Source: Schmidtea polychroa
Taxonomy: Eukaryota
Assembly (NCBI GenBank): GCA_044892525.1
Contig: CM097887.1
Coordinates: 50,592,001 to 50,656,000 of the forward strand
Length of the DNA: 64,000 bases
Direction: 5' to 3'
A program made the position numbers and the translations under genes. Positions 4,130-54,182 of the stretch are shown one piece after another. The notes under the pieces are model-generated. The model did not search any database. It was not told where the DNA came from and was given only the letters and a program-made list of their open reading frames with translations. Positions within the stretch are counted from its first letter, which is position 1; each line of letters opens with the position of its first letter.

Positions 4130-5740
4130 TCTAACACCGAAGTTCAAGAACAATTTGACCCAATATCCTCAAACACGGCAAACACTACTATTGACAGTCA
4201 GCTACCAGATTGCTAGAATGAGAAACAATTAAGGATATTTACAGAGCAATATAAATGGTTAGTAGATGAAAAATTATGTTGTCAAGAGTGTTCACAAATA
4301 AAGAACTTGGGAATAGAAACCGAAAAACATATACATGTTTCAAATGAATGGATGTCGGGGTTGATTGTACCCAACGGATCGAAAAAAGAATCCAGACAAG
4401 CCTCTCTTCGCAAAAAAATAAAAGAACATTCCTTATCTCAAGTGCTTATTAGAATTCAGGAGATTATAAATCAACATGAAAAACAAGTTTTGCTCACTAT
4501 GGTTGACGTTTTTAATACGAAAGTAATTAATAAGACAGTAAAAATTTTCAACACTGTTTATAGTCTCGTAAAGAGCAATCAACCACTATCTGATATAGAT
4601 ACTGCTTTGGAATTGCAAGAAAAAAATGGCGTTGATATTGGAAATTGTTTACATTCCAGATATACTGCTACTAATATTGCGCAACATAATGCTACCGAAA
4701 TTAAAAGAATGGTGTTTAAAAACATTATCAAACAAAATTCAAAAATCTGTATTATAATAGATGAGGCATCAACGTTTGCTAAGTACTTTGGTATTATTTT
4801 TACAGTGTGAAATAGAATCTGCAGTTGAGCCAGTGATGGTTTTTGTGGGATTTAAAAGAATTGACATCTACCAGTGCAGAAAATATCCTCAGGATATTAC
4901 TAGACTGTTTGACAGAATATGGATTCAATAACGATTATTTACGAAAAAATATTATAGCATTCATTAAGAGCAATAGAAATGCGAAAAACTGATTTTGGAA
5001 AGCATGAAATACAAGTTCCAAGTTTAACTATTTCAGATGACTTCAAATGTGTACCGTTCGAAAACAATAATAAATTTAAATCTATTTCAAGAGAAAAATT
5101 ATTGGATGGTGTTGACCAGAATATGGAGCTTAGACTATTCATTTGATGGTCATTTGATGAAATACTTTGGCCGAAAGAGGAAGAAAAAGTTACTAAATTA
5201 TGTGAAATTCTAAAATTTAACATTGATATCAACGAATTTTGTGATTTTGTTGATGTTAACATACAGTCACAAAATATTCAGTTGCCTAAAACAATTTTGA
5301 AGGCAAAGAAAATAGCTAACACCATAACAGTTAGCAGTGCAGAAGCCGAACGAGGATTTAGTTTGCTGAATACAATTGTAACAAAATTAAGAACTAGCTT
5401 AACAATAGATAACATTGCAGATCTAATGTCCATAAATTTATTGGGAAAGCCAGTCAATAATTTCGATGCAACACCCATGGCAAAGTCGTGGATAAATGAA
5501 AATCACAGACTGGTAACGGAGACGAGTGAAAAAAAAGGCCGCGATGTTTTCCGAAAATGAAGTAGGCACGTGGAGCTTATATTAATACATTACTTCATTT
5601 CCCGTTGTAATACTGTTTATATTTATGTATTAATGTATGCTTAATGTATTATATGTATAATCTTCAATATAATTAAAATATAAAATTGTTTGGTTTTTTT
5701 AGCGAGCCGGTTGTTTAACTCTTTGGCAACACACCCCTGA
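4130..5740 (+). mobile_element. hAT transposase pseudogene (KIAA1586/ZNF862-like), internally deleted
   Basis: ORFs 4307-4810 (CIIIDEAST) and 5282-5560 (TITVSSAEAERGFSLLNTIVTKLRTSL, hAT dimerisation motif) with frameshifts between them; terminus-like ...ACACACCCCTG at about 5730-5739. Confidence 0.85.
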
Positions 5741-6619: not shown

Positions 6620-6827
6620 NNNNNNNNNNNNNNNNNNNNNNNNNNNNNNNNNNNNNNNNNNNNNNNNNNNNNNNNNNNNNNNNNNNNNNNNNNNNNNNNN
6701 NNNNNNNNNNNNNNNNNNNNNNNNNNNNNNNNNNNNNNNNNNNNNNNNNNNNNNNNNNNNNNNNNNNNNNNNNNNNNNNNNNNNNNNNNNNNNNNNNNNN
6801 NNNNNNNNNNNNNNNNNNNNNNNNNNN
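6620..6827. other. Assembly gap (208 N)
   Basis: Run of N. Confidence 1.
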
Positions 6828-11505: not shown

Positions 11506-13127
11506 TGTTTGGCCAGGAAAAGAAAAATTTCTTTCAACCAAGTTTTAATTATCTTTTGGTTTAAGCGTAGAATCTTGTTTCTTTTTTAAGTTAGGGATGT
11601 AAACATTTTAAAATCAACTAAAATAACAATAAATAGAAGATTAGATTAAAAATAATTAAACACAAATGATAATAAATAGAAGTTTAGATTAAAAAATGAT
11701 AATAAAACTAAAACGATAATAAATAGAGGTTAGATCAAAAATAATTAAACTAAAATGAAAATAAATGGAGGTTAGATAAAAAAGAATAATTAAACTTAAA
11801 TGACAAAAATAGAATTTTAGATTAGAAATAAGATCAGAAAAAATAAAAATACGAACAGTCAAGAATAAAGCAGATAAAATAAATTAACAAAGATATAATT
11901 AATAATTAAATTAACAAAATAAAAATTAAAAGAAAAACAATAAAATAACAAATAAAATAGAAAAATGTGCAATATGCACAATTGCTTAATCCTGATTGGA
12001 TAAGACAGTAGGAAATATATATCAATCAGTAACGTAGTTGAATTTTCTAATGTTATTTTCTAAAAACTTCTATATTACTTGTTTTATTATTACAATATGA
12101 TAATTTATGATATTTATGTATTTGAATTATAATAATTAAACTTTAATGGCAACGTTTTCTTTTTTCTCCAATTTATTAAACGATTATCCTTTACAGTAAA
12201 TAATCACAATTAATTCGAATTTTATGAGATCACAATTTTTATGATTTTGTTTTTATGAATGTGGCCGGATTGAACGATGTTCGTGAGGTGTTGGCGTGCT
12301 GATGCTACAGCGGATATTCGACAGTTCGGAGCATTGTTTTTATGAATAGAATTATTTTAGACTGTTTAGAAAGTAATAGATAAGAAGTATGGTAATCCGT
12401 GGAAGGGTAGATCTTTTGACTGATTGTAGAATATAACACGGTTAGCATCAGGTTGAGTAGAGAGAGGTTTTGTTTTGAAATGAAATTCAGTTGGAGATAT
12501 CGAAAATATTCCATTTTGGTGAGCACGAATCAATTCGTTAGCATAAGCCTATGGTTGGAAGACACAGCTCGAGATAGATATCTATCATCTGCTGCGAGAA
12601 CCAGAAGGGAGCGAGTTTTGGGTAGTCACAGGAAGAATGCTCAAGTTATCAAAGATTCTCATAGGTATCGTCACTGATCTCCAGTGTATCAACTAGTTGG
12701 CGAATGCTCTTTATCATTAACTTTTAATACAAAATATAATTTGATGTTTTCTTTTACTTGTCTTCTATGATGAAATGTATTTGGTCAAGCGGTTGATTAG
12801 ATTGATGTACGAGAGAAAGTTAGAAAAACCTTGATCGGACCAGAGGTTTAGCGTGGATATTATTGTCAACAATTTATGGGGATACAAGACCTTCTGTCGG
12901 CCAACCGGAACTCGAAAATGAAGATATCACGAGGAATAGTTTTAGCAATGGAGTGCACCTGCTCATGAATTTTCAGCCATTGTGTGCAGCACCAACATCG
13001 TCGTCGCCATGGGTACGCAGATGGTTTAAAGATAACAGTCATGGAAGTGTTTAGGAAGGAGTCGCTTCGAGAATCTATAAATACCGATACTACATTTAAA
13101 TATGACACAACCCTAAGCGGCCCAACA
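11506..13127 (+). mobile_element. 1622-bp solo-LTR-like unit with 4-bp TSD
   Basis: Termini TGTTTGGCC / GGCCCAACA (9-bp inverted repeat, 1 mismatch), flanked by CTAA on both sides (11502-11505, 13128-13131). Contains an A-rich tract, CTGATTGG (11992-11999) and a TATA-like element (12016-12022). Its 3' block is homologous to 33100-33405. Confidence 0.7.
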
Positions 13128-13559
13128 CTAAGATAGTTTATCTTTAATTAGTAAACAGTCAAACTTGAAATCGTCGCATCAAGGCACACCTCTTTATGCA
13201 TCCCGTCAAAATGTGTCGCGTATCTAATTAACCTGCCGAACAATAATATGTTTGTTAAATTTATTTCAAGTCAACGAGATAGATAATAATGGAAATAATT
13301 AATCTTTGTCTAATCCAATTAAATAGACAAAATATTTGATAAAGGAAAAGAGTAATCCTCGTTTAATCTAATCAAATCAGAAAAATACACAATAGTGGAA
13401 GTAAGGGAAATATAATGGAAATAATAGATCTTTGTATAGTCGAATAAAGTCAGCGAAATATAGAAATAAGGAAAATCATTAATCTTCGTCAAATTTAATT
13501 AACACAGCTTCTCAGCGCTTCGATACCAGCAATCTCTTGATCTTCTATTGAAATTTCAT

Positions 13560-14072: not shown

Positions 14073-14663
14073 CAGCCGCAGTGTCACACCCATTGGTCAA
14101 CGTAGATCTAGATGACCCCGATTTTAGACTCAATGGAATGTTCTAGCAGTCTCGACTGTATCCAAGTCATACTTGTGTGTTTTAAAATTTAAGTAAATGT
14201 TTTATGTTTAAGTTTTGATTTTTCTTGTGGTTGTCTTAATTATGAAAATGTCTTGAAAGGGTTGAAAATAGGTAAAAAGGTTAAAACAGAAATCATTAAT
14301 TAATTAATTAATTGGCTAATGGAAAACCCGGGCTAATGGGAAGTCCGAGCCAATGGAGAACCCGAGAGATGAAGAAACCTCGAGCACGGTTATTAGGGAA
14401 AATAAACAAACTGAACGTTGGAGAACGATTATCAAAACAAACAAAACGACTTTTGGAGAGACATTATCTTAACAACCGAGCGCGGCAATCGAGAAAATTA
14501 AACAGTTTAACTTTTAGAGAACTATTATGGAATCAACAGGATAAGTGAGGGTAAATAAAAAAAGATCGGAAATAACATGAAGGAACGGTAGAAGTGATTA
14601 ATTACAGTTATTTTATCATAAATCGAAAGACAAAACAGGTTAGGTTTACCCGGAAATTATGTA

Positions 14664-15068
14664 TTGATGACGTTAGCAAAAATTGGCAAACAACCACGAA
14701 TATTAATCCAACTAAATAAAAAGAGAGTGGAGGCTGTTGTGGATTCAGGATCAAGTCATACAATTATATCAGAAGAGATATTGTCGGCAAAGGAGAAAAG
14801 ACAAATAAAACCATCAAATAGCATAATCAGATCACTGTCTAAAAACGTATTGAGAATAATTGGAGAAATAGAAGTGGTACTTCTAATTGGTGACAGAAAG
14901 ATTACACATAACGTACAGATTATGGAAAAAAGCCCTGTATTGTGTTTGATTGGAATGGATGTACTGGAGCAGTTAGACGGAATCTCACTGGATTTTAAAA
15001 CTGGAAATTTGATCGTGGGAAAAAGTGGCGAAGTCATTCATAATTTAGGAGAAGTATTTCTCGAATAG
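14664..15068 (+). mobile_element. Ty3/Gypsy retropepsin (aspartic protease) remnant
   Basis: VEAVVDSGSSHTIIS active-site motif and CLIGMDVL motif. No RT or integrase found downstream; the sequence is interrupted by the array. Confidence 0.85.
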
Positions 15069-15228: not shown

Positions 15229-15273
<45 letters not shown>

Positions 15274-16720
15274 GCAGCTTCTTGGGACTTTTCACTTTTC
15301 AATTATTTGTTTTATTTTTTAACTGTTTTGAATTTAATTATTTGTATATTTGGTGTATTTTTTATGATTTTTGCATTTTATATTTTCTGTTGCTGACTTG
15401 ACAGGTAAAAATACAAATATTTTTTTTTATTTACTAAATTTATTAATTATCGACCTTCTGGCACTACACGAGATTACAAACTCAAAATATTGTCATTTTT
15501 TAATAATAATCCAATGTTTTTCTACTTTATTAAAAGATTTGTAATTGTTTATCTATGTTCCAGTTCGGCGTGGTAAAAATCTGACAGCGTCAGCCACCGG
15601 CTACCATTTTCCACCCAGAAAAATATTGATTTTTACATTTTTCGAATTTTAATTAATTTTAACAATTTGTAATTTTCTATTTTAGAAATGTTTGTATAAC
15701 CCCAATTGTGTGCAGCTAATTCATATGTATTTTCCACCCTTTCGTGATTTGCAGTGCAAGAAAGATGGTTGCATGCTGACTCGAGTTTTGTTTATTAACA
15801 AACTCAGAAACCAAAATATATCTTGAGTAAAAATATTGTGTTGGGCAGCCAATAGCAAGCCGACATTTCCACGCTTGCTTCGTGTTCGTGTGGCAGGAAG
15901 AAAGAGATTTAGAGTCCCTTTTTAAATTGATTTATCTCGACTGAAAGGGGAATTAAATTAGAAATGAAAAAAAAATAAATTAAATTACTTGTAAGTCTCT
16001 CTGAGACATCAGCAAATAATAACAAAAGAAATTTGAGATAGTCGAAAAAAAAAATTAATTAAATTACGTGCAAGTCAGACATCGTCAGATAATTTTGAAA
16101 ATGAGATTTTGAAATATTTGGGGGAAAATTCTTTTAAAATAAAATGAATAAATAAACATCATTTTGTTATTGGAATTATTATTATTATTAAGATTAATAT
16201 TATTATTATTTCATATATTTATATCAGTAATGCCTTCGTATTTGTATCAGTCAAATAAAAATATTTTGTAAGTAGTTTATTTAGTATGTTGACGATAAAT
16301 TTTGTTAGTTGTCAATTAAATCGACTTATTTCTATATATCCTTGGAATTAGGAGATATTACTGGAACTAATTTAGAATAATGAATCAATTGTGCCTGTTC
16401 AGAATAAAAGTTGTGTACAATCGAATAAAAAAATTCTATCATCATATTAAAGCTTAGCTTTAGTTCATCACTCTATTGATTGCTTGGACTGTAAAATCGT
16501 CTGAAATTAATGTTATCAGTCTATTAATCGTTTAATGTAACAAAATTCCTTTAGTTATTTCAATTCTTGGTTTTGGGTATTGCATCTATATAAAAGAAAA
16601 AAAGAAAATTTTTTAAATTCCTGAGTTTCAAAATGTTTCCCTTGTTTTGACTAAAATGGCAACTCTTTAAACATAATTCAAACTTAATAATTATTATTAT
16701 CGTATGATAAATTGGAATTA

Positions 16721-17623
16721 TTAGGAACATGCAGATTCGAGGACGAATCTAAAGAAAAGGGGAGATATGTTGAAGTTCAACAGGAGAGGTACAGAAATGA
16801 GGTGAAAAATGAATAAAAACACCGAGTGAAGGTTTTATCCATCCACAAAGTTTTAAGCTCTTGCTCCAGGCTTTTATATTTTCCAACAGAAACATTGAAT
16901 TTGAAGGAGTTAAAAATTCTCGCCCGCTCAGGACCATGATTTTCAGTTTCTGCATTGAGTGCCAATCGAACAGAAGATCTGTCAGGAGATACACTATTGT
17001 GCTCAGATACATCACGTCCCCGTTTCTTGTGTTTACGGTGAACGTGCTTAATAGATCGCTGCTTTGAAGATACACGATCAATCTTGTCAGGAGTTCGCAC
17101 AGTGGGCACAGGTGAGCGAGACAGTACGGGAGATAAACTGTTTGAATCGCTGTGGTCGCTACGAGATATTTTAGGCATACTGGGAGATCGTCCCTCAGGA
17201 GTGTTATTATGTCGTCTAGAAGATCTCGCCACTCGGTGCCTTTAAGTAGATCATACATCATCGGTGATATCGGAATATCTTCCATTTTCGTTGTTTTCGA
17301 CACATTGACTTCCTGCCATAGATAATCGCAATTGTTTTGAAATTGTATATTTAAAAATGAATTACATATTACTTATTACCTCCAAATGCTTCAAGAACCA
17401 ATCCTAATCGAGAAGCGTGAGTTCCAATCAATAATGGATGACGTGTGTTATAGAATCGTTTATAACACTTAAACACGTCACTATCGATTTTAATATAAGC
17501 AGTATTCACTCCTTCTTTATTGCAAAAATAACTTGGCAATTGATAGGTTGGAAATCTTGTATTTGGATTTATAAAGTAATTATTAATATCAATTAAAAAT
17601 TTTTTTATAACTTCTTCAGACAT
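16721..17623 (-). pseudogene. Predicted 3-exon gene (~253 codons) with a basic S/R-rich central region, two in-frame stops; copy 1
   Basis: Exons 17623-17380, 17312-16823 and 16748-16721, joined in phase by GT-AG introns of 67 and 74 nt (the second has a strong pyrimidine tract). Stops at TGA 17253-17251 and TAA 17244-17242. Product includes RSSRRH..SRSP..HRKHKKRGR. Confidence 0.6.
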
Positions 17624-17640
17624 TACAATTCTAAACTAAA

Positions 17641-19609
17641 ATGGCTCGTATTTATAAGGGTGAGTATCACATGCCTGGTTACAATTTTTTGTGGCCCAGG
17701 CACAAATACTGACATATGATTGGATAAAACACAAGAAAAAAATCCTGTGCCTGGCTGCGAACCAGTTGATGAAATTGATTTACTGTGCCTACAACATGAC
17801 AAAGACTACAAGAGCAAGTCCACACGTGTGCGGCATGAATCAGATAAAAGATTAGTTGCTGACTTGCAGTTAATCACAGATGATTCACTATGAACTAGAC
17901 AGGTCTTTGCCAAACACGTAATTTTATTTACATTTCATTTGAAAATTTTTATAGAAAAATTAATGTTAACCAAAAATATGATGGATGAATTTATTAAAGA
18001 AAATCGTCCTGAAAAAACTACATTAGACGTTATGAAAAGATTTGCAAAAAATTTACAAACAACAGAAGCTATTAATGATTTAGTTAAATATAACTTTCGT
18101 ATGCAGCATAACACTGATATTTTAAAAAATAGTTTAAAAGGCAGAACAAAGCTTTATGTTAATGCAGGTGAAAGAATATTTGCATTGTACAGTGAACATA
18201 TACATCCACGAGTTATGTCATATTTGAGTAAATTAAAAGGTGATTTAGCAGTACCCGATGGCTTTAGGGCTTTATATCATTCCAATTCAATTAAATCTTT
18301 AACGAGCGATTTATTTCACCCTTTAAATCTAGGTCAAAAGTTCAAAAATACTACAGGTAATTATATTAACAGATCTGTCATTACTCCTCAGGTCACAAAG
18401 ATTTTAACCATGTTTAGACAAAGATCTTTTTATAAAGGTATTGTTTTCAGATATGGTGGAACAGCATCAGATTTAATTGCTCAGGCTGGTATAACGGGGA
18501 GTCATTTAGCAGCAGAGCATGTATGGGAAACTTTCGACCCACATAGTATAAATCCCGATCCCCGAGAACATATTTATGAAAGATATTCTGAAGAAGAAAT
18601 GAATAATTTAAAACCTTTAAGTGAACATGAAGGGTATTTTGACTATAGTGAATATTTATATCCAGATAGAGATTTTTTTTATAGTTTTCATAGAGATTAT
18701 GACTATGTTAATCCATTAGAAAACACTGTTCCAAATTATTTCGGCAAACAATATCAATATTTTTTAACAAAAGCTCAACATTTTGTTAAAGAATTAAGAA
18801 AAGAAAATTATAGTGTTAATTATCCCTGGAAGATACAAGATATAAAAGACTTAATGAGTGGTAATTATGTATTAAATAAATTATTTACAGATAATCCTGG
18901 TATGTTAGAACAGTTTCATATTACTTCTAAAGGTAATATAACAAAGTTTTTAACATCGGCTATGTTTCAAGCACATAAAACAATGGAATTACCAGATTAC
19001 GACTCTAAAGACCCTCAGAAAGAACTATATGAATATGTACGTTTGAGATCTGTAGAAGAACAATGAAAAATTAATCCTTATGACACATATAATCCTGGTG
19101 AACCTAATTCGTGGTATGCATGGGCATCTGATGGTAAACAATATAAATGGACTGTCACTTCTTTTAGACATTATTGGAACCCCAGTACCAGACGTTTTCC
19201 TAGGAAATTACCCATTTCAGCGCTTTCAAAACAACAAGTCAATGATAAATTTACACAGTACCTTCATAGTTTTAATAATAATAAATTAAAATATAATTGG
19301 TTACATGGTCGTGGCGAAGGCAAGAATAAAGATATTCGCCTCCTCAACCGGGGAGAGTTAGAGATATTAAGATATCATTATCAATTAAACCATCATCAAT
19401 CGATTGAACACACTAACTGGAAGGAAGCAACAAAAGAACAACTAACGCAATACATACGCAAAATGCCTAGAAACATACCTGTTAAGATAATAAATGAAAT
19501 ACATCATAAAGATTTAACCAATCATATATTAAATAGTCACAAAGAACATGTCGAGAGCACTAGGGGTTCTGTATATACTGAACAAGCTATAAAATCATTA
19601 GGGCACTAG
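17641..19609 (+). pseudogene. Disrupted ~655-aa protein with N-terminal parvovirus VP1/adintovirus-type phospholipase A2 domain; copy 1
   Basis: MARIYKGEYHMPGYNF-(+1 T in T6 run 17685-17690)-CGPGTNTDI*LD..PVDEIDLLCLQHDKDY..RHESDKRL. The same frame runs through TGA 17717, TGA 17891, the 375-aa ORF and TGA 19064 to TAG 19607-19609. Confidence 0.85.
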
Positions 19610-19738
19610 CAATTTCAGGAGGAATAGCCGGATATCTGTCGTAAGGTAGCGGTATAGTAGCATAGAACCGAGTAGCCAGAGTGAATAATTTTGTATATAA
19701 TAAATCTGTAAATATCGGTGTATATACACAATAATATT

Positions 19739-19876
19739 AAACAGTTAAAAAATAAAACAAATAATTGAAAAGTGAAAAGTCCCAAGAAGCTGCAGATATA
19801 TATATATATATATATATATCTGCAGCTTCTTGGGACTTTTCACTTTTCAATTATTTGTTTTATTTTTTAACTGTTT
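19739..19876. repeat. Perfect 138-bp palindrome: right TIR + (AT)12 + left TIR (junction 1/2)
   Basis: 57 + 24 + 57 nt, fully self-complementary. Confidence 0.97.
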
Positions 19877-21268
19877 TGAATTTAATTATTTGTATATTTG
19901 GTGTATTTTTTATGATTTTTGCATTTTATATTTTCTGTTGCTGACTTGACAGGTAAAAATACAAATATTTTTTTTTATTTACTAAATTTATTAATTATCG
20001 ACCTTCTGGCACTACACGAGATTACAAACTCAAAATATTGTCATTTTTTAATAATAATCCAATGTTTTTCTACTTTATTAAAAGATTTGTAATTGTTTAT
20101 CTATGTTCCAGTTCGGCGTGGTAAAAATCTGACAGCGTCAGCCACCGGCTACCATTTTCCACCCAGAAAAATATTGATTTTTACATTTTTCGAATTTTAA
20201 TTAATTTTAACAATTTGTAATTTTCTATTTTAGAAATGTTTGTATAACCCCAATTGTGTGCAGCTAATTCATATGTATTTTCCACCCTTTCGTGATTTGC
20301 AGTGCAAGAAAGATGGTTGCATGCTGACTCGAGTTTTGTTTATTAACAAACTCAGAAACCAAAATATATCTTGAGTAAAAATATTGTGTTGGGCAGCCAA
20401 TAGCAAGCCGACATTTCCACGCTTGCTTCGTGTTCGTGTGGCAGGGAGAAAGAGATTTAGAGTCCCTTTTTAAATTGATTTATCTCGACTGAAAGGGGAA
20501 TTAAATTAGAAATGAAAAAAAAATAAATTAAATTACTTGTAAGTCTCTCTGAGACATCAGCAAATAATAACAAAAGAAATTTGAGATAGTCGAAAAAAAA
20601 AATTAATTAAATTACGTGCAAGTCAGACATCGTCAGATAATTTTGAAAATGAGATTTTGAAATATTTGGGGGAAAATTCTTTTAAAATAAAATGAATAAA
20701 TAAACATCATTTTGTTATTGGGATTATTATTATTATTAAGATTAATATTATTATTATTTCATATATTTATATCAGTAATGCCTTCGTATTTGTATCAGTC
20801 AAATAAAAATATTTTGTAAGTAGTTTATTTAGTATGTTGACGATAAATTTTGTTAGTTGTCAATTAAATCGACTTATTTCTATATATCCTTGGAATTAGG
20901 AGATATTACTGGAACTAATTTAGAATAATGAATCAATTGTGCCTGTTCAGAATAAAAGTTGTGTACAATCGAATAAAAAAATTCTATCATCATATTAAAG
21001 CTTAGCTTTAGTTCATCACTCTATTGATTGCTTGGACTGTAAAATCGTCTGAAATTAATGTTATCAGTCTATTAATCGTTTAATGTAACAAAATTCCTTT
21101 AGTTATTTCAATTCTTGGTTTTGGGTATTGCATCTATATAAAAGAAAAAAAGAAAATTTTTTAAATTCCTGAGTTTCAAAATGTTTCCCTTGTTTTGACT
21201 AAAATGGCAACTCTTTAAACATAATTCAAACTTAATAATTATTATTATCGTATGATAAATTGGAATTA

Positions 21269-22171
21269 TTAGGAACATGCAGATTCGAGGACGAATCTAA
21301 AGAAAAGGGGAGATATGTTGAAGTTCAACAGGAGAGGTACAGAAATGAGGTGAAAAATGAATAAAAACACCGAGTGAAGGTTTTATCCATCCACAAAGTT
21401 TTAAGCTCTTGCTCCAGGCTTTTATATTTTCCAACAGAAACATTGAATTTGAAGGAGTTAAAAATTCTCGCCCGCTCAGGACCATGATTTTCAGTTTCTG
21501 CATTGAGTGCCAATCGAACAGAAGATCTGTCAGGAGATACACTATTGTGCTCAGATACATCACGTCCCCGTTTCTTGTGTTTACGGTGAACGTGCTTAAT
21601 AGATCGCTGCTTTGAAGATACACGATCAATCTTGTCAGGAGTTCGCACAGTGGGCACAGGTGAGCGAGACAGTACGGGAGATAAACTGTTTGAATCGCTG
21701 TGGTCGCTACGAGATATTTTAGGCATACTGGGAGATCGTCCCTCAGGAGTGTTATTATGTCGTCTAGAAGATCTCGCCACTCGGTGCCTTTAAGTAGATC
21801 ATACATCATCGGTGATATCGGAATATCTTCCATTTTCGTTGTTTTCGACACATTGACTTCCTGCCATAGATAATCGCAATTGTTTTGAAATTGTATATTT
21901 AAAAATGAATTACATATTACTTATTACCTCCAAATGCTTCAAGAACCAATCCTAATCGAGAAGCGTGAGTTCCAATCAATAATGGATGACGTGTGTTATA
22001 GAATCGTTTATAACACTTAAACACGTCACTATCGATTTTAATATAAGCAGTATTCACTCCTTCTTTATTGCAAAAATAACTTGGCAATTGATAGGTTGGA
22101 AATCTTGTATTTGGATTTATAAAGTAATTATTAATATCAATTAAAAATTTTTTTATAACTTCTTCAGACAT
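21269..22171 (-). pseudogene. Predicted spliced basic S/R-rich gene, copy 2
   Basis: Matches copy 1 at +4548. Confidence 0.6.
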
Positions 22172-22188
22172 TACAATTCTAAACTAAA

Positions 22189-24157
22189 ATGGCTCGTATT
22201 TATAAGGGTGAGTATCACATGCCTGGTTACAATTTTTTGTGGCCCAGGCACAAATACTGACATATGATTGGATAAAACACAAGAAAAAAATCCTGTGCCT
22301 GGCTGCGAACCAGTTGATGAAATTGATTTACTGTGCCTACAACATGACAAAGACTACAAGAGCAAGTCCACACGTGTGCGGCATGAATCAGATAAAAGAT
22401 TAGTTGCTGACTTGCAGTTAATCACAGATGATTCACTATGAACTAGACAGGTCTTTGCCAAACACGTAATTTTATTTACATTTCATTTGAAAATTTTTAT
22501 AGAAAAATTAATGTTAACCAAAAATATGATGGATGAATTTATTAAAGAAAATCGTCCTGAAAAAACTACATTAGACGTTATGAAAAGATTTGCAAAAAAT
22601 TTACAAACAACAGAAGCTATTAATGATTTAGTTAAATATAACTTTCGTATGCAGCATAACACTGATATTTTAAAAAATAGTTTAAAAGGCAGAACAAAGC
22701 TTTATGTTAATGCAGGTGAAAGAATATTTGCATTGTACAGTGAACATATACATCCACGAGTTATGTCATATTTGAGTAAATTAAAAGGTGATTTAGCAGT
22801 ACCCGATGGCTTTAGGGCTTTATATCATTCCAATTCAATTAAATCTTTAACGAGCGATTTATTTCACCCTTTAAATCTAGGTCAAAAGTTCAAAAATACT
22901 ACAGGTAATTATATTAACAGATCTGTCATTACTCCTCAGGTCACAAAGATTTTAACCATGTTTAGACAAAGATCTTTTTATAAAGGTATTGTTTTCAGAT
23001 ATGGTGGAACAGCATCAGATTTAATTGCTCAGGCTGGTATAACGGGGAGTCATTTAGCAGCAGAGCATGTATGGGAAACTTTCGACCCACATAGTATAAA
23101 TCCCGATCCCCGAGAACATATTTATGAAAGATATTCTGAAGAAGAAATGAATAATTTAAAACCTTTAAGTGAACATGAAGGGTATTTTGACTATAGTGAA
23201 TATTTATATCCAGATAGAGATTTTTTTTATAGTTTTCATAGAGATTATGACTATGTTAATCCATTAGAAAACACTGTTCCAAATTATTTCGGCAAACAAT
23301 ATCAATATTTTTTAACAAAAGCTCAACATTTTGTTAAAGAATTAAGAAAAGAAAATTATAGTGTTAATTATCCCTGGAAGATACAAGATATAAAAGACTT
23401 AATGAGTGGTAATTATGTATTAAATAAATTATTTACAGATAATCCTGGTATGTTAGAACAGTTTCATATTACTTCTAAAGGTAATATAACAAAGTTTTTA
23501 ACATCGGCTATGTTTCAAGCACATAAAACAATGGAATTACCAGATTACGACTCTAAAGACCCTCAGAAAGAACTATATGAATATGTACGTTTGAGATCTG
23601 TAGAAGAACAATGAAAAATTAATCCTTATGACACATATAATCCTGGTGAACCTAATTCGTGGTATGCATGGGCATCTGATGGTAAACAATATAAATGGAC
23701 TGTCACTTCTTTTAGACATTATTGGAACCCCAGTACCAGACGTTTTCCTAGGAAATTACCCATTTCAGCGCTTTCAAAACAACAAGTCAATGATAAATTT
23801 ACACAGTACCTTCATAGTTTTAATAATAATAAATTAAAATATAATTGGTTACATGGTCGTGGCGAAGGCAAGAATAAAGATATTCGCCTCCTCAACCGGG
23901 GAGAGTTAGAGATATTAAGATATCATTATCAATTAAACCATCATCAATCGATTGAACACACTAACTGGAAGGAAGCAACAAAAGAACAACTAACGCAATA
24001 CATACGCAAAATGCCTAGAAACATACCTGTTAAGATAATAAATGAAATACATCATAAAGATTTAACCAATCATATATTAAATAGTCACAAAGAACATGTC
24101 GAGAGCACTAGGGGTTCTGTATATACTGAACAAGCTATAAAATCATTAGGGCACTAG
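22189..24157 (+). pseudogene. Disrupted PLA2-led ~655-aa ORF, copy 2
   Basis: Same frameshift and three TGA codons as copy 1. Confidence 0.85.
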
Positions 24158-24286
24158 CAATTTCAGGAGGAATAGCCGGATATCTGTCGTAAGGTAGCGG
24201 TATAGTAGCATAGAACCGAGTAGCCAGAGTGAATAATTTTGTATATAATAAATCTGTAAATATCGGTGTATATACACAATAATATT

Positions 24287-24424
24287 AAACAGTTAAAAAA
24301 TAAAACAAATAATTGAAAAGTGAAAAGTCCCAAGAAGCTGCAGATATATATATATATATATATATATCTGCAGCTTCTTGGGACTTTTCACTTTTCAATT
24401 ATTTGTTTTATTTTTTAACTGTTT
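24287..24424. repeat. Perfect 138-bp palindrome (junction 2/3)
   Basis: Same structure as 19739-19876. Confidence 0.97.
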
Positions 24425-25816
24425 TGAATTTAATTATTTGTATATTTGGTGTATTTTTTATGATTTTTGCATTTTATATTTTCTGTTGCTGACTTGACAG
24501 GTAAAAATACAAATATTTTTTTTTATTTACTAAATTTATTAATTATCGACCTTCTGGCACTACACGAGATTACAAACTCAAAATATTGTCATTTTTTAAT
24601 AATAATCCAATGTTTTTCTACTTTATTAAAAGATTTGTAATTGTTTATCTATGTTCCAGTTCGGCGTGGTAAAAATCTGACAGCGTCAGCCACCGGCTAC
24701 CATTTTCCACCCAGAAAAATATTGATTTTTACATTTTTCGAATTTTAATTAATTTTAACAATTTGTAATTTTCTATTTTAGAAATGTTTGTATAACCCCA
24801 ATTGTGTGCAGCTAATTCATATGTATTTTCCACCCTTTCGTGATTTGCAGTGCAAGAAAGATGGTTGCATGCTGACTCGAGTTTTGTTTATTAACAAACT
24901 CAGAAACCAAAATATATCTTGAGTAAAAATATTGTGTTGGGCAGCCAATAGCAAGCCGACATTTCCACGCTTGCTTCGTGTTCGTGTGGCAGGGAGAAAG
25001 AGATTTAGAGTCCCTTTTTAAATTGATTTATCTCGACTGAAAGGGGAATTAAATTAGAAATGAAAAAAAAATAAATTAAATTACTTGTAAGTCTCTCTGA
25101 GACATCAGCAAATAATAACAAAAGAAATTTGAGATAGTCGAAAAAAAAAATTAATTAAATTACGTGCAAGTCAGACATCGTCAGATAATTTTGAAAATGA
25201 GATTTTGAAATATTTGGGGGAAAATTCTTTTAAAATAAAATGAATAAATAAACATCATTTTGTTATTGGGATTATTATTATTATTAAGATTAATATTATT
25301 ATTATTTCATATATTTATATCAGTAATGCCTTCGTATTTGTATCAGTCAAATAAAAATATTTTGTAAGTAGTTTATTTAGTATGTTGACGATAAATTTTG
25401 TTAGTTGTCAATTAAATCGACTTATTTCTATATATCCTTGGAATTAGGAGATATTACTGGAACTAATTTAGAATAATGAATCAATTGTGCCTGTTCAGAA
25501 TAAAAGTTGTGTACAATCGAATAAAAAAATTCTATCATCATATTAAAGCTTAGCTTTAGTTCATCACTCTATTGATTGCTTGGACTGTAAAATCGTCTGA
25601 AATTAATGTTATCAGTCTATTAATCGTTTAATGTAACAAAATTCCTTTAGTTATTTCAATTCTTGGTTTTGGGTATTGCATCTATATAAAAGAAAAAAAG
25701 AAAATTTTTTAAATTCCTGAGTTTCAAAATGTTTCCCTTGTTTTGACTAAAATGGCAACTCTTTAAACATAATTCAAACTTAATAATTATTATTATCGTA
25801 TGATAAATTGGAATTA

Positions 25817-26719
25817 TTAGGAACATGCAGATTCGAGGACGAATCTAAAGAAAAGGGGAGATATGTTGAAGTTCAACAGGAGAGGTACAGAAATGAGGTG
25901 AAAAATGAATAAAAACACCGAGTGAAGGTTTTATCCATCCACAAAGTTTTAAGCTCTTGCTCCAGGCTTTTATATTTTCCAACAGAAACATTGAATTTGA
26001 AGGAGTTAAAAATTCTCGCCCGCTCAGGACCATGATTTTCAGTTTCTGCATTGAGTGCCAATCGAACAGAAGATCTGTCAGGAGATACACTATTGTGCTC
26101 AGATACATCACGTCCCCGTTTCTTGTGTTTACGGTGAACGTGCTTAATAGATCGCTGCTTTGAAGATACACGATCAATCTTGTCAGGAGTTCGCACAGTG
26201 GGCACAGGTGAGCGAGACAGTACGGGAGATAAACTGTTTGAATCGCTGTGGTCGCTACGAGATATTTTAGGCATACTGGGAGATCGTCCCTCAGGAGTGT
26301 TATTATGTCGTCTAGAAGATCTCGCCACTCGGTGCCTTTAAGTAGATCATACATCATCGGTGATATCGGAATATCTTCCATTTTCGTTGTTTTCGACACA
26401 TTGACTTCCTGCCATAGATAATCGCAATTGTTTTGAAATTGTATATTTAAAAATGAATTACATATTACTTATTACCTCCAAATGCTTCAAGAACCAATCC
26501 TAATCGAGAAGCGTGAGTTCCAATCAATAATGGATGACGTGTGTTATAGAATCGTTTATAACACTTAAACACGTCACTATCGATTTTAATATAAGCAGTA
26601 TTCACTCCTTCTTTATTGCAAAAATAACTTGGCAATTGATAGGTTGGAAATCTTGTATTTGGATTTATAAAGTAATTATTAATATCAATTAAAAATTTTT
26701 TTATAACTTCTTCAGACAT
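25817..26719 (-). pseudogene. Predicted spliced basic S/R-rich gene, copy 3
   Basis: Matches copy 1 at +9096. Confidence 0.6.
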
Positions 26720-26736
26720 TACAATTCTAAACTAAA

Positions 26737-28705
26737 ATGGCTCGTATTTATAAGGGTGAGTATCACATGCCTGGTTACAATTTTTTGTGGCCCAGGCACA
26801 AATACTGACATATGATTGGATAAAACACAAGAAAAAAATCCTGTGCCTGGCTGCGAACCAGTTGATGAAATTGATTTACTGTGCCTACAACATGACAAAG
26901 ACTACAAGAGCAAGTCCACACGTGTGCGGCATGAATCAGATAAAAGATTAGTTGCTGACTTGCAGTTAATCACAGATGATTCACTATGAACTAGACAGGT
27001 CTTTGCCAAACACGTAATTTTATTTACATTTCATTTGAAAATTTTTATAGAAAAATTAATGTTAACCAAAAATATGATGGATGAATTTATTAAAGAAAAT
27101 CGTCCTGAAAAAACTACATTAGACGTTATGAAAAGATTTGCAAAAAATTTACAAACAACAGAAGCTATTAATGATTTAGTTAAATATAACTTTCGTATGC
27201 AGCATAACACTGATATTTTAAAAAATAGTTTAAAAGGCAGAACAAAGCTTTATGTTAATGCAGGTGAAAGAATATTTGCATTGTACAGTGAACATATACA
27301 TCCACGAGTTATGTCATATTTGAGTAAATTAAAAGGTGATTTAGCAGTACCCGATGGCTTTAGGGCTTTATATCATTCCAATTCAATTAAATCTTTAACG
27401 AGCGATTTATTTCACCCTTTAAATCTAGGTCAAAAGTTCAAAAATACTACAGGTAATTATATTAACAGATCTGTCATTACTCCTCAGGTCACAAAGATTT
27501 TAACCATGTTTAGACAAAGATCTTTTTATAAAGGTATTGTTTTCAGATATGGTGGAACAGCATCAGATTTAATTGCTCAGGCTGGTATAACGGGGGGTCA
27601 TTTAGCAGCAGAGCATGTATGGGAAACTTTCGACCCACATAGTATAAATCCCGATCCCCGAGAACATATTTATGAAAGATATTCTGAAGAAGAAATGAAT
27701 AATTTAAAACCTTTAAGTGAACATGAAGGGTATTTTGACTATAGTGAATATTTATATCCAGATAGAGATTTTTTTTATAGTTTTCATAGAGATTATGACT
27801 ATGTTAATCCATTAGAAAACACTGTTCCAAATTATTTCGGCAAACAATATCAATATTTTTTAACAAAAGCTCAACATTTTGTTAAAGAATTAAGAAAAGA
27901 AAATTATAGTGTTAATTATCCCTGGAAGATACAAGATATAAAAGACTTAATGAGTGGTAATTATGTATTAAATAAATTATTTACAGATAATCCTGGTATG
28001 TTAGAACAGTTTCATATTACTTCTAAAGGTAATATAACAAAGTTTTTAACATCGGCTATGTTTCAAGCACATAAAACAATGGAATTACCAGATTACGACT
28101 CTAAAGACCCTCAGAAAGAACTATATGAATATGTACGTTTGAGATCTGTAGAAGAACAATGAAAAATTAATCCTTATGACACATATAATCCTGGTGAACC
28201 TAATTCGTGGTATGCATGGGCATCTGATGGTAAACAATATAAATGGACTGTCACTTCTTTTAGACATTATTGGAACCCCAGTACCAGACGTTTTCCTAGG
28301 AAATTACCCATTTCAGCGCTTTCAAAACAACAAGTCAATGATAAATTTACACAGTACCTTCATAGTTTTAATAATAATAAATTAAAATATAATTGGTTAC
28401 ATGGTCGTGGCGAAGGCAAGAATAAAGATATTCGCCTCCTCAACCGGGGAGAGTTAGAGATATTAAGATATCATTATCAATTAAACCATCATCAATCGAT
28501 TGAACACACTAGCTGGAAGGAAGCAACAAAAGAACAACTAACGCAATACATACGCAAAATGCCTAGAAACATACCTGTTAAGATAATAAATGAAATACAT
28601 CATAAAGATTTAACCAATCATATATTAAATAGTCACAAAGAACATGTCGAGAGCACTAGGGGTTCTGTATATACTGAACAAGCTATAAAATCATTAGGGC
28701 ACTAG
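26737..28705 (+). pseudogene. Disrupted PLA2-led ~655-aa ORF, copy 3
   Basis: Same lesions, plus two A>G changes (27596 S>G, 28512 N>S). Confidence 0.85.
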
Positions 28706-28981
28706 CAATTTCAGGAGGAATAGCCGGATATCTGTCGTAAGGTAGCGGTATAGTAGCATAGAACCGAGTAGCCAGAGTGAATAATTTTGTATATAATAAA
28801 TCTGTAAATATCGGTGTATATACACAATAATATTACATATAATACCCGTATGGAAACCATAAATGTCATAACAATAAAATTAAGCGAAAAATGAAAAATA
28901 ATAACTAAATAACGAACGAACGTAGAATATAAACACCAACTTGATAATATTATTATTTAGAAAAAGACACAAGAAAGAACA

Positions 28982-30981: not shown

Positions 30982-32048
30982 ATTCGAGACTCAGACGGCG
31001 TGGTCGCCAGACAAGTGAATTTTATTATAACGATTTATTTTATAACACCATACCATGTATTTAATCATATTTATTACAAAAGCCTTTTTGTTCTTTTTAA
31101 TTGACGAAGTGAGGAGATCGAATCGTCCTTCCTGGCGGTCTAGGGATGGTGGCAGCGATGATTGCCGTCCTTAGGTGGGTCAGGAGGGGTGAGGACATCC
31201 GGCGGACGATATTACTACTGCACGGGAAATTCTGTCACTGAGTGATGTCTGCGTCCGAATCAGGCACCCACGTACGTAAGGCATGTACTCATGAAAACTC
31301 TAATGGAACTTCCCATCGGTAACGTCACAGGAACATATGCACGCACACCCGGTAGCAAAATTCGTTCCAGCAAAGATGACATCAAATCCAATCGGGAGAG
31401 TTCTATATGACGTCATAGTTACATAATGAAATAGGCCTTACCTGAGATAGTAGAGTGTGTGTAGAAACCAATGAGCAGGCCGAATTTTCATATAGTGATA
31501 TAACATCTTCACACGGCAGTCGTGATGTAAGCAGATAAACATATTATGGTACACACATTCACTAGTCTACGTCGTCATGACAACCATTATCGCAGTGATT
31601 TAAAAACAAACACTCGAAAATAATAATGGGTGAAATCAGTAATTACGAATTAAATGTTTAATCGATTGATTTTATATACGGTCAGGAACCTAAATCGGAT
31701 TTTCTTGTTCTATTAATTCAATAATGCCTAATTCTTGATAACGAGAGAGACATAATACAGAGAAAGATAATTAGGTAGTTTAATAAACCAGATTAATACT
31801 ATTAAAATAACAATCGCGAGACGGCAATAATATATTTAACCAAAACCGACAAGATTGACATAGACGAGTAAATTTAAGGTGACTATTCTCATTTTCTTTC
31901 AAATAAGTTAGAGAGATTTGTGCGAATTATCATGAATGATCTGTGGCATGCATGAGTTTATGGACGAATGTTGAACGTATGTGTGAGATAATTTTTTTTA
32001 AGTTCGTTTTATGAGGGAGGTGGGTGATTGAACCCGCGCTGCACAAAT

Positions 32049-32864
32049 ATGATCGTCGATCAACTAAATGCGAAAAACAAATTTGATATCTTTGATCTTC
32101 AGATGACTACCCCAATCAATACCGAGAAAATTCTTCGTCCTTGTTTTTCCTGCGCGGACAAAAATGCTGACATCGCGCAGCTTCACCTCTACATCGGGGC
32201 TCTCAAGAAAAGAATCGACCTTTACGAAGGCACGTGGTTCTCCCCGCCACAAATGAAGGAGGAGAGAAGTAAAGTATTGCGGCTAGAACATTGTAGAGAT
32301 AGCTTGCTGGAGGAAAGCCGATGTCAACGGCTTACAATCAAAGCCCAATCAGAAGCCCTCCACAAGGTATACACGGAGGCAGAGCTAGCCAAGCGGGTAC
32401 GGGAATTTCCCGTCATAGAAAAAATGAACGTTTTTCCTCTCCATCACCAAGTATCCAAACCAACTACTACGAGCTGCCAAGGGCATGGACCGTGCCTACC
32501 GCCCATCCCAGCTCCAATTTTATCGGGTTCTCAACCTGTGGTAGGTGGACCTACCGACCCCATCTTGGATCCAATTCTGGTGGCACCCGTCGTCACCCCG
32601 CACACTGAAAACCACCCGTCGTCCCGCAAACGGAAACGGCCGACCCGAGCCGAGAAAAATCAGAAACGCCGAGACGCGATGGCTGCTCTCGAGGCGTCCC
32701 TATCGGTGGCTCAATCTACCATAAAAGAAATATCCTCCAGCCATTCCATTCCAACTAAGGAAATCTTTCGCAGAATTCCAGCAGAAGGTATTAAGTATAT
32801 GTCCGACCACCGATTGCCCGTCGACATCGACGAGATGATCGCGGAAGGCGAGGGGTTTCCGTAA
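32049..32864 (+). CDS. Hypothetical coiled-coil/Pro-rich protein with NLS-like RKRKRP, inside the LTR-like unit
   Basis: Long intact ORF (first ATG 32049) in an AT-rich genome. A diverged homologue at 13560-14072 conserves amino acids, indicating real coding history. Confidence 0.75.
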   Translation: MIVDQLNAKNKFDIFDLQMTTPINTEKILRPCFSCADKNADIAQLHLYIGALKKRIDLYEGTWFSPPQMKEERSKVLRLEHCRDSLLEESRCQRLTIKAQSEALHKVYTEAELAKRVREFPVIEKMNVFPLHHQVSKPTTTSCQGHGPCLPPIPAPILSGSQPVVGGPTDPILDPILVAPVVTPHTENHPSSRKRKRPTRAEKNQKRRDAMAALEASLSVAQSTIKEISSSHSIPTKEIFRRIPAEGIKYMSDHRLPVDIDEMIAEGEGFP

Positions 32865-34392: not shown

Positions 34393-37300
34393 ACCCAGAA
34401 AAAGCTTCTGATCAAATGTGGAACTGTAATAAATCACGATTGTACATATGATGCTGATGTATTAATTGAAAATGGCAAAATTGTGAATATTGCAAATAAT
34501 CTTGAAGATCCATCAGCTGAGTGCATAGATGCTACTGGTTGTTTTGTGATTCCAGGTAACTTAATAATAAAGTTATTGATTTGATTCTGTTACGTAATCT
34601 TAATTACAATTTATATATAAAAAATATTTTAATTTGAACCCATAGAAAATTTTTTTATTTTAATAGATTGCACATATCTGAGTTGATATAATGAAATCGT
34701 GCAGGGATAGTTAATTTGACCTATGTTGATTTAATGTATTTATTTATGTATACATTTAGAAAATATTCAAATTAAATTACACGGCTGATAGACTTTTGAT
34801 AGTGAAAATAGTTGCAGGAATTGTAACTCTTAGTGTGATTCACAAGCAGCACTAATGGCATTTATTGAAAATCAGTAGTCACATAAATTTTATGTGTAGA
34901 GAAATTTTTAAAGTAACCGTTTCTATTTTAAGATCATTAAAAATTTTGCGATTTGTTTAATTTATATTATTGACAGTCTATGGCTTACACTTTCCATAAT
35001 ATCTAAGTGAATATGTTTGATTTCTGTTAAGATGCTGAAGTAAAACATTTCTATAGATAGTGATATTAAATTTATTTCTTCAAGGGAAATGTTGATAATT
35101 TTATTTTTTCCCGTGAGCCATGCTTTTATTCTGCCAATCAGAAGCCACAATGCTAGATGGCTCACTTCTTCCCATTGTGGCTTCAAAACATTTATTTAGT
35201 TATTTGTATATTGTAAAATAATGCATTTCATTTTAAAATTAGGAGGAGTAGACGCAGAAACATATTTCGCCGCCAAAAGAGGTGGTATTGTAAGTCCAGA
35301 AAATTATTTCTCCGGTACAAAGGCTGCGATATATGGTGGAACTACCACTGTCGGTAATTATTTATCTCAATACTAATATTTATTTTTAATATAATGTAAT
35401 TATTTAGTTAACTGTCTTGAAATAATCAAGGATGAATCTTTGAAAGAGAAATATGAAATTGAGAAGGAAATAATTTCTAAGGAAATTGTGTGCAATCTGG
35501 CTGTACAGCTCTGTTTGCCGGAAGTTAATGATACTATTAAATCACAATTTTATGAATTACTGCAATCTAAATCCGTTGTCCCGTTGGTCAGATTATCAAC
35601 TGTGGATAAAGGTTGTCATTGTGTGAGAATCGATGATCAAGAACTGTATGATGCATTGTGCTGGTGTAGAGATAATTCTGTGCTACCAACCGTGCATGCT
35701 GAAAATGATAAGATGGTTGCAATTCTTGAGAAAGAATTACTAGCTATTGGGATAACTGGTCCTGAAGGTCATTATTTATCTAGACCCGAAAAGGTAAGTT
35801 GCTTTAATATGAGCTTTGATTTTATGTAGCTCTTTTTTTATTTTTTTAAATACACTTTGAAAAGGCATTGCCGAAAATTTGTGAATATCAAAAACATCGA
35901 TATATTTACTGGTTCATAGTCAAGCTTTTTAATAAATACAATATTTATGATGCCGATAATAAGGTCATTAATAATAATTTATTATGATAATAATTAATAA
36001 TGATAATGTTAATGAAAAAATTAAGTGATAATTTAAGTCTTTTGATGTGAATAATGTATATAATGAAAACATTTTCAACTATAAGATAGTCCTTGTCAAT
36101 CTCCTGGAATCTAGTATTCCTCTTCCCAAAAATACATCTCGATTTTTCTTTTTTGTCATTTTTCCTACTTTTCATTGGTTAAAAATATAATATAATGATA
36201 TACTTTCTTTTTCTGAAGAATCTTTAAAAATTTTATTTAAAATTAAAATCAAATATCCTCTAAAATTCAAAATGAAACACCAACCAAAATTTTTAAAGCT
36301 TCTATAATTCGGCCATAGAAGCATATTTTAGTGAAAAAATATTTATAAAATAAAGCTTACAATAACTATTTCTATACGCGATTTAAATATTTTAATATAT
36401 GTCAATTTTGATCTTTATTCCTATCTTTTAAAAGCATATTTCCTAAAATTTTTATATTATTTTAATTATTGTTTTATAATTTTTTTTAATATCAGTTATT
36501 TTCAAGGTCAATGACAACAGATCAAATTGATGATTTCTTTAGTATTGATTGTTGGCCGTCTATGTCTAATGAGAATTGCTTCTTTGAATCTGACCTTTTT
36601 TTGGATGTTTCCATTGGCTACGATTTCGATTGAAATATTTTTTCGTTCCTTCCTTGGTTGACATTGTTGGAGATGTCTGTATAACGACAATTTCCACCAA
36701 GATATAGATGTTCTTTAACTATTTGGTACAAGGTCCTGAGTGTACTTCCAATGTATATTTCCTTGCATACACTGCACGTGATGCAGAAGACAATGTTTTT
36801 TCTAAAGCACATATCTTTCGGTCTCTGTCAATTTTCCATTATGCAATTATTTTCTTTATTTGTGTTGTTGGCCAGGGCTTTTCTCAATATCCAAGATTTA
36901 TGTGCTATCGGAATTGGAAGACCGGTGCGTTTAAGTTCTTTCAGGATCTTGGAGTCAAGTATGTTGATGAATGGAACATTCAGATAGAAATATTTCTTTT
37001 TTGTGTAATCTCCCTAGATCTTTTTGGTTTTGGATTCATTTTTTCACTGTCCTTACTATGATATCCGTTTCTGTGTAGGATTTTATTAAAATTTGATTGC
37101 TGTTTAAAGTTCTCGTTTTCTTCAGTGCATCGATTGGCTATCCTTTGTTTCTCGTTTTTTATGACATGTACTTTCTGTAAATATGGAAGCGCTGATCTTT
37201 CGTGCATAAATATTTATTTGTGAGCTGCTTTTCTGTAGAACCCGTATGTTGGAGTATTTGTTTCTATTTTAATTCTTTAATCCAATAAATTGAGGGATCC

Positions 37301-45834: not shown

Positions 45835-46411
45835 GGGTCTACGACAAAAGGCCGACAGAGACAAAAGACCGACGAGGACAAATAGCTTACAGGCTTAAAA
45901 GTCGACAGAGATAAAAGCCGACTAAGTAATTTTATAATTTTATAGGATAAATAAACAATTAAAATAACATCATTTATTTAAAGAAAAAGATGCAGAAAAA
46001 TATTTCTACAATAAAAATCTTAAAACTTAAATTATACGATATTCCCCGTAAAAAAATTATGTAGAATATTTCAGGATGATTTTTTCCAACCAATATTTGC
46101 CATATTTTGTGCGAATTCTCTACTTTGTTTTGAGTTCTTAGTATGGCGTTTATTTCGTTGTCATATACAGACTAAATTTATAATAATAAATAAGTATTAT
46201 TGAAACAATTTAAAATTATGTTTATTGTTTAGAATAAAATCTTTTAAATTATAATTTATGAATTAAATTATCTTTTTGTTTGCTTTTGTTCATGTCGGCT
46301 TTTTGTCCACGTCGGTCTTTTGTCTGTCGACTTTTTGTCCATGTCGGCCTTTTGTCTGTCGGCCTTTTGTCTGTCGGCCTTTTGTCTATGTCGGCCTTTT
46401 GTCCGGATTCC
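45835..46411. mobile_element. MULE-type MITE, 577 bp, with tandem subterminal repeats and 9-bp TSD
   Basis: Inverted arrays of GACAAAAGGCCGAC at both ends; AATATTTAA on both flanks (45826-45834, 46412-46420). Confidence 0.85.

Positions 46412-54151: not shown

Positions 54152-54182
<31 letters not shown>

Follow-up and report, generated by a model that had tools for sequence, protein, structure and literature searches.

Do the perfect palindromes in a tandem array of the flatworm Schmidtea polychroa represent the joined ends of a mobile element, or do they record a rearrangement at an AT microsatellite? The array lies in a stretch of 64,000 nucleotides (contig CM097887.1 of assembly GCA_044892525.1, forward strand), which we call the window and which has a GC content of ~30%. 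The first-pass annotation of this DNA had read the arms of the palindromes as left and right TIRs and had suggested that the AT repeat may form their tips. We therefore asked whether the layout of the array, its outer edges, the genes that it carries, and the history of its copies agree with that reading or with another one.

Three direct units are joined by two identical palindromes

The array consists of three units in direct orientation, confirming the first-pass description, and has no gap inside and unique flanks on both sides (Table 1). Neither a further copy nor a protein-level relative of the unit was found elsewhere in the 64-kb window. The unit copies are 99.91–99.96% identical and differ at four sites, all of them A/G differences (unit-1 positions 15898, 16174, 18500, and 19416; the others lie at +4548 and +9096). 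The differences are nested: on the + strand, unit 1 reads AAAA, unit 2 GGAA, and unit 3 GGGG, with two sites private to unit 1 and two private to unit 3. This pattern may record serial copying with a strand-biased mutation process.

At the two junctions we re-found the perfect 138-bp palindromes with the coordinates (19739–19876 and 24287–24424), arms, and 24-nt AT core given in the first-pass annotation. The palindromes are identical, each being composed of a 57-bp arm, (AT)12, and a second 57-bp arm, and they are the sole perfect palindromes of at least 24 bp in the window other than pure AT runs. The inverted arm together with its AT repeat is the exact reverse complement of 15248–15328 at the left edge of the array. 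Folding of the 138-bp palindrome as DNA gave −72.1 kcal/mol (z −23.8), and because none of 200 shuffles folded equally stably, the palindromes are not chance products. This prediction of a very stable hairpin agrees with the earlier remark that such palindromes can extrude cruciforms. The first 24-mer of the arm occurs five times in the window (the maximum over 100 shuffles was 0), and it had no match in prokaryotic genomes.

It had also been pointed out that exactly 24 nt of AT repeat separate the arms at both junctions. The length is correct, but the junctions are not independent: because the triplicated copies differ at four sites only, the second junction is a copy of the first or the reverse, and the constancy of (AT)12 counts as one observation.

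Table 1. Positions of the array, its junctions, its open reading frames, and the neighbouring protease remnant in the 64-kb window.
Feature	Position	Strand	Observation
Retroviral-type aspartic protease frame, LTR-retrotransposon-like remnant, left flank, outside the unit	14622–15068	+	PF00077, E 4.7e-8
(AT)19 tract, left edge of array	15234–15271		Without inverted arm to its left
Array, three direct units, period 4,548 bp	15248–28835	+	4 single-base differences
Forward arm copy 1, 57 bp (segment a)	15272–15328	+	Inner edge inside local 43-bp tandem repeat (15304–15385)
Left third of unit, non-coding, low complexity	15329–16680		GC ~0.27; (ATT)n at 16175–16210; stops in six frames
207-codon open frame	16749–17372	−	No family, no homologue found
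154-codon Arg/Ser-rich frame, overlapping the 207-codon frame	16777–17241	−	Open frame
Open frame of 88 codons (ATG at 17623), diverging from the PLA2-like one	17369–17635	−	No family
Long frame, 670 codons	17597–19609	+	3 internal stops (TGA at 17717, 17891, 19064)
Broken parvovirus-VP1-type PLA2-like domain (PF08398)	17671–17944	+	E 9e-5; 23.1 bits against a cut-off of 23.9
Inverted 57-bp arm (a'), junction 1	19739–19795	−	Exact reverse complement of the left-edge arm
(AT)12 core, palindrome 1	19796–19819		24 nt of AT repeat
Forward arm copy 2, 57 bp	19820–19876	+	One of three forward copies
Palindrome 2, identical to palindrome 1	24287–24424		Inverted arm 24287–24343, (AT)12 24344–24367, forward arm 24368–24424
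Unit 3 end	28707–28835	+	Ends at the inner arm boundary (1-nt overlap); arm, AT tract, stable hairpin, and TSD all absent

The inverted arm is confined to the junctions

With a standing for the AT repeat plus arm, b for the body of the unit, and a' for the inverted form of a, the array reads a b a' a b a' a b. In this layout, directly duplicated units meet at a short inverted piece. The forward arm is present three times and the inverted arm twice, with none at the right edge of the array. Unit 3 stops at 28835, the exact point at which an inverted arm would have started, with one shared base and no inserted bases; under uniform truncation, an array end within 2 nt of the inner arm boundary has a probability of ~0.001. 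No arm-like sequence was found in the 2.1 kb past 28835, nor does the right edge carry an AT tract. The right end of unit 3 folded no better than shuffles (z −0.6 to 0.5). A search for a target-site duplication between the array flanks found none, the best flank match being 5 nt long and reached by 1,152 of 5,000 nulls. Beyond the arm we noticed an imperfect inverted match of ~17–21 nt, which is marginal (reached by 58 of 1,991 and 44 of 1,000 nulls) and could fit a priming site or the remnant of an older, longer TIR equally well.

These edges speak against the reading of the arms as left and right TIRs with AT tips, since the right arm never stands at an outer edge and the array ends at most 1 nt from the inner boundary. 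Being found solely inside junctions, the inverted arm is not demonstrated as a right terminus.

AT tracts recur in the window outside the array

As had been noted before, the left edge of the array begins with (AT)n. Three more (AT)n tracts of 20–62 nt are present in the window outside the array, none with a flanking arm longer than 2 bp. (AT)n tracts are thus an ordinary host repeat in this window.

The left-edge tract had been described as directly abutting Gypsy pol-like sequence. A frame for a retroviral-type protease is indeed present, but it ends 165 bp before the AT tract. The description is also loose because the left flank holds the protease only: scans of short ORFs (42 on the left, 43 on the right) and of three read-through frames on the right detected no RT, RNase H, or integrase domain in the flanks. 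We considered the right flank as a continuation of a Gypsy-like pol and rejected this, as no RT domain was found. Upstream of the protease remnant there are degenerate tandem repeats of 42–47 bp and 53/73 bp (11616–11831 and 13286–13502).

The window contains further repeats and remnants. There are hAT-like remnants (Dimer_Tnp_hAT; DUF4371, E 1e-17) and a Tc1/mariner remnant (DDE_3, HTH) at 4217–5560, 62156–63998, and 41003–42068. At 54910–56721, 45-bp inverted repeats (98% matched) surround a 341-codon frame with weak FLYWCH/RYYR-CCHC zinc-finger matches; this is probably a MULE-like TIR element, for which inspection by eye revealed no clear TSD. Two dispersed repeats each occur twice in opposite orientation at 36098–38229 and 53024–57960 (77% over 835 bp; 90% over 276 bp). 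A frame at 53383–53706, which by eye we take to resemble the GIY-YIG endonuclease of Penelope-like elements, had no Pfam match. GC-richer 15/17-bp tandem repeats at 46283–46404 with an inverted partner at 45843–45922 may mark the two ends of a foldback or MITE-like element of small size (45843–46404). Host genes include a dihydropyrimidinase/CRMP-like gene (38772–39927, + strand) and a divergent proteasome alpha-6 gene (60963–61589, − strand), for which the best of 174 matches, leading the next by 21 bits, was a protein of the flatworm Paragonimus (E 5e-40; 61% identity). A 278-codon proline-rich orphan frame in a 48% GC island (32028–32864, + strand) had no Pfam match and was absent from the protein collection.

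The unit carries a broken virus-like gene cluster

The left part of the unit, ~1.4 kb, is non-coding, and the rest is compact with diverging genes. A host-trained Markov model scored the first of 11 unit windows above all 71 host windows and placed three of the four long-ORF windows below the host 10th percentile, a test that mostly measures low complexity and in which viral non-coding ends can look alike. In make-up the unit looks composite, with a non-coding left third and a virus-like ORF region.

The long frame stands out by its three internal stops, compared with 41–87 in each of the other five frames over the same region, and its longest open piece (17894–19066) encodes 390 aa. All three in-frame stops are TGA and none is TAA or TAG (P ~0.013 under random substitution). 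The PF08398 match in this region is just below the cut-off, and a weak PHROG match covers the same piece. A frameshift near 17686–17690 splits the opening motif of the PLA2-like domain from the remainder, which is further interrupted by the stops at 17717–17719 and 17891–17893. Within the piece we see what we take to be the GPG loop and the HD pair.

Searches for relatives of the unit were negative. Pfam scans of 20 short ORFs, 4 long ORFs, and 6 read-through frames found no transposase, Rep/NS1, helicase, PolB or other polymerase, or integrase domain in the unit. For 105 of the 112 short ORFs of the unit and flanks (the seven others were scanned separately), Pfam returned three matches with E 0.004–0.007, all in the right flank and below the cut-off; we treated these and a RelE match (E 0.08) as chance. 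The 390-aa piece had no match among 1.84 billion protein representatives, the long frame (670 codons) matched none of 5,156 candidates from a 5.8-billion protein set, and the PLA2 region matched none of 45 shorter proteins. No match was obtained for the PLA2 piece among PDB sequences or for the unit in DNA and protein searches of phage records, an exact protein look-up found none of 10, and the best scores of the unit proteins in a protein atlas search (0.77 and 0.80) were below lead level. Rfam and tRNA scans returned nothing. Single-sequence structure models were too poor to use, with a pLDDT of 32.9 in one and below 50 for the PLA2 part, and no sequence match to a capsid jelly-roll was found after the PLA2 domain.

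According to PMC5013282 and PMC8502044, such a PLA2 typifies VP1 of parvoviruses and PLA2X of adintoviruses. Because of this, and as no homologue was found for the other proteins of the unit, we regard the gene cluster as virus-like but unclassified; a viral origin of the passenger genes appears plausible. A PLA2-bearing virus-like gene cluster without detectable relatives in a flatworm points to an unsampled lineage of invertebrate DNA viruses.

The amplification probably followed the decay of the genes

Every lesion of the gene cluster, that is, the three stops and the frameshift, is common to all three copies. Because the copies carry identical lesions and differ at four sites only, we place the amplification after gene decay. 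Provided that the stops are random decay, as the age estimate assumes, three stops correspond to ~50–70 substitutions (2.6–3.7%). Separately decayed copies would then be expected to differ at ~230–330 sites, whereas four were observed, and two separate 57-bp TIRs would have stayed identical at that age with P ~0.015–0.05. The inverted arm, too, was probably formed long after the genes had decayed.

Since every one of the stops is a TGA, both the clock and the argument from TIR identity could be undone by recoding or a bias in mutation; the restriction of the copy differences to A/G likewise bears on a possible bias or recoding that would weaken the clock. We considered TGA recoding across the window and rejected it: skipping TGA greatly lengthens the long frame only, and three other frames gain 11, 12, and 95 codons.

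A fold-back at the AT microsatellite is the favoured origin of the junction

Weighing these results, we favour, with somewhat better than even confidence, the reading of the palindrome as a fold-back junction at a host (AT)n microsatellite, made once and followed by expansion of the array. Most likely, a 4.5-kb piece of host DNA with a decayed virus-like gene was tandemly copied by one replication or repair slip at the AT microsatellite. Directly observed are the arrangement of the array, its precise edges with the 1-nt overlap, the lesions common to all copies, and the near identity of the copies; from these we infer a single-copy ancestor, the strand switches, and the order of events.

The ancestral locus would have been single-copy, consisting of left flank, (AT)n, arm, body, and right flank, and its body would already have contained the decayed virus-like genes. 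During replication or break repair, a strand at 28835 would have crossed over to the opposite strand at a point 57 bp in from the unit's left end, and these 57 bp would then have been copied backwards into the AT tract. Copying would have turned round at (AT)n, which is possible because (AT)n is its own complement, and the unit would have been copied forward again. An equivalent route would start from a break at (AT)n capped by a hairpin: a nick 57 bp down the stem would open it, and end joining would connect it with a break at 28835. The expected product, a b a' a b, is a directly duplicated unit in which a short piece is present three times, once inverted. A third unit would have been added to it by unequal crossover or rolling-circle copying. 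The first-pass annotation had argued that direct orientation favours amplification by recombination or via a circle over head-to-head hairpin copying, and the units, being direct repeats, support this part of its reasoning.

A single event of this kind explains why the palindrome is perfect, why the right edge is exact and lacks an arm, why no inverted arm precedes the left edge, and why neither a TSD nor mobility genes are seen. In yeast, (AT)n hairpins and cruciforms are described as fragile sites processed by structure-selective nucleases (PMC12972899). The microhomology available differs between the two switches: the first switch has 1 nt, plus the marginal imperfect match nearby, and the second has a perfect, self-complementary AT tract. 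The 1 nt at the first switch is shorter than the 3–30 bp given for switch microhomology in PMC3161906, which counts against template switching. The right break was perhaps not arbitrary, because it lies ~130 nt past the stop of the long frame and just after an AATAAA, where a natural element end might be.

If the fold-back reading is true, the locus provides a clean natural case in which copying turned round at an (AT)n microsatellite and so gave rise to a perfect palindrome and a tandem amplification. Such junctions mimic TIR–TIR joins and can mislead repeat annotation in AT-rich genomes.

Alternative origins of the palindromes

An alternative that we consider unlikely, yet that fares best among the rivals, takes the 138-bp palindrome as a native terminal hairpin. 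It would be the left end, in unfolded form, of a parvovirus-like element of 4,548 nt, and the true unit would run from 19739 to 24286. The array would be a head-to-tail concatemer with its first hairpin cut at the AT tip, and 28835 would be the natural right end, so that the exact right edge is explained without coincidence and its place shortly after the long-frame stop and AATAAA is accounted for. The size of ~4.5 kb and the PF08398 domain fit parvovirus-like elements, of which PMC3198968 describes an acorn-worm repeat with a PF08398 ORF and a 5' palindromic hairpin as well as planarian PIVE/PEVE. The unit and flanks contain no NS1/Rep/SF3 domain, however, and the right end lacks a hairpin (z ~0). 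The divergence of the genes from the middle and the 1.4 kb of non-coding DNA with an (ATT)n tract also disagree with such an element, and the lesions common to all copies would demand a defective template. In addition, rolling-hairpin replication produces inverted concatemers, whereas the concatemers here are direct.

Spelled out, this alternative would make unit 19739–24286 the genome, or a genome segment, of a DNA virus or virus-like element of flatworms that is new to science, with one perfect 138-nt terminal hairpin around an (AT)12 core, divergent genes, and no recognisable Rep, a proposal to which we assign a low probability. Its PLA2-headed protein of ~640 aa would resemble none of the 1.84 billion representatives, and the three in-frame TGA codons might be read through instead of being lesions. 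The element would have integrated in the form of head-to-tail concatemers, with a cut at the tip of the hairpin on the left and its natural end on the right. The earlier suggestion that the AT tract may be part of an element end survives here, in that the tract may belong to a single left terminal hairpin. Were this alternative true, it would reveal a new end structure for such an element.

Still less probable in our view is the model of the first-pass annotation, according to which the element measures 4,524 bp, carries true TIRs of 57 bp tipped with AT, as a bidna- or Vesanto-like segment might, and was end-joined into a circle and integrated as a concatemer. According to PMC8363768, Vesanto segments measure 3.3–5.8 kb, bear inverted terminal repeats, and can do without a replicase gene of their own. 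The perfect match between the arms, with its marginal imperfect extension, also speaks for this model, and the direct orientation of the units fits a circle. As the right arm is found at no outer edge, the model needs an extra event that removed the last right TIR to within 1 nt, possibly cleavage at the base of a cruciform. Moreover, the shared lesions place the amplification after decay, and perfect identity of the arms is unlikely at the estimated age.

We give similarly little credence to a technical artefact, in which a fold-back chimera from whole-genome amplification, a rolling-circle read of a small circle, or a mis-assembled collapsed repeat created the junction or inflated the number of copies. 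Amplification chimeras are frequently inverted, AT tracts self-prime, the copies are nearly identical, and the assembly is scaffolded, with a gap of 208 N at 6620–6827. On the other hand, units 1 and 3 each have two private differences, the two junctions are base-identical, and the array is gap-free between unique flanks.

A DNA transposon of the MuTAnT type, inserted three times into one (TA)n tract, would account for the AT tracts between the units and at the left edge, and families that target TA microsatellites are described in PMC4486113, but we consider this origin very improbable, as it is already largely refuted by the right edge without arm or AT, the unit contains no transposase, independent insertions should leave variable TA numbers rather than two identical spacers, the three other AT tracts all lack arms, and the window holds no other copy. 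The first-pass annotation had likewise listed repeated insertion into an (AT)n target as an alternative only, and the one-sided ends, identical spacers, and missing transposase agree with that ranking. We also considered and rejected a Helitron: these elements have a TC start, a CTRR end, and a 3' hairpin, and although TC follows the AT tract here, there is no CTRR end, stable 3' hairpin, or RepHel domain.

Comparison with known elements and rearrangements

Among known elements, the unit recalls the parvovirus-like repeats of invertebrates (the acorn-worm element and planarian PIVE/PEVE), with which it shares a PF08398-type domain, scoring just below the cut-off here, a size of ~4.5 kb, and degraded ORFs according to the descriptions in PMC3198968 and PMC5013282, as well as a flatworm host and a palindrome at one unit end (PMC3198968). 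Judged by these descriptions, it differs in that no NS1/SF3 helicase or Rep was found, in its divergent gene layout, and in that the long frame had no homologue in our searches. Parvoviridae have hairpins at both genome ends, whereas the unit has the left palindrome only and its right end folds like shuffled sequence. PLA2X genes of adintoviruses and Polintons and the Vesanto segments, as presented in PMC8502044 and PMC8363768, offer parallels in a PLA2-like domain outside a parvovirus capsid and in 3–6 kb segments with inverted ends. Unlike in these, no PolB, integrase, ATPase, or capsid domain was found in the unit and its flanks, although a non-replicase segment could lack them, and at its outer right end the array has no inverted arm. 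The MuTAnT Mutator-like elements of PMC4486113 are similar in that element-like sequence lies next to TA repeats; compared with the features given there, the locus has no transposase, is one-sided, has a constant spacer, and is tandem rather than dispersed. In the literature searched, neither the element nor a comparable flatworm junction was described; the supplements of PMC3198968 and PMC5013282 list parvovirus-like loci of invertebrates that could bear on this.

Parallels also exist among rearrangements. In ODIRA (PMC11790251; PMC4689423), as in the fold-back reading, a switch to the opposite strand at short inverted repeats is described, with an inverted middle copy. ODIRA as set out in PMC11790251 triplicates the whole segment with the middle copy inverted, whereas here the bodies are direct and only 57 bp are inverted. 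The embedded inverted duplication or DUP-TRP/INV-DUP class (FoSTeS/MMBIR; PMC3161906, named as cited in PMC3714349) likewise has direct repeats joined via an inverted triplicated piece. The account in PMC3161906 also contains two inverted template switches, two novel junctions, and expansion by unequal crossover, all with counterparts in our scheme; its E. coli cases have inverted pieces of 5–43 kb, compared with 57 bp plus AT here. On the fold-back reading, the junction is a variant of a known rearrangement class, and the passenger genes are orphans. Because its second switch would have occurred at a self-complementary (AT)n, it is a perfect palindrome without a spacer, which sets it apart from the known DUP-TRP/INV-DUP junctions.
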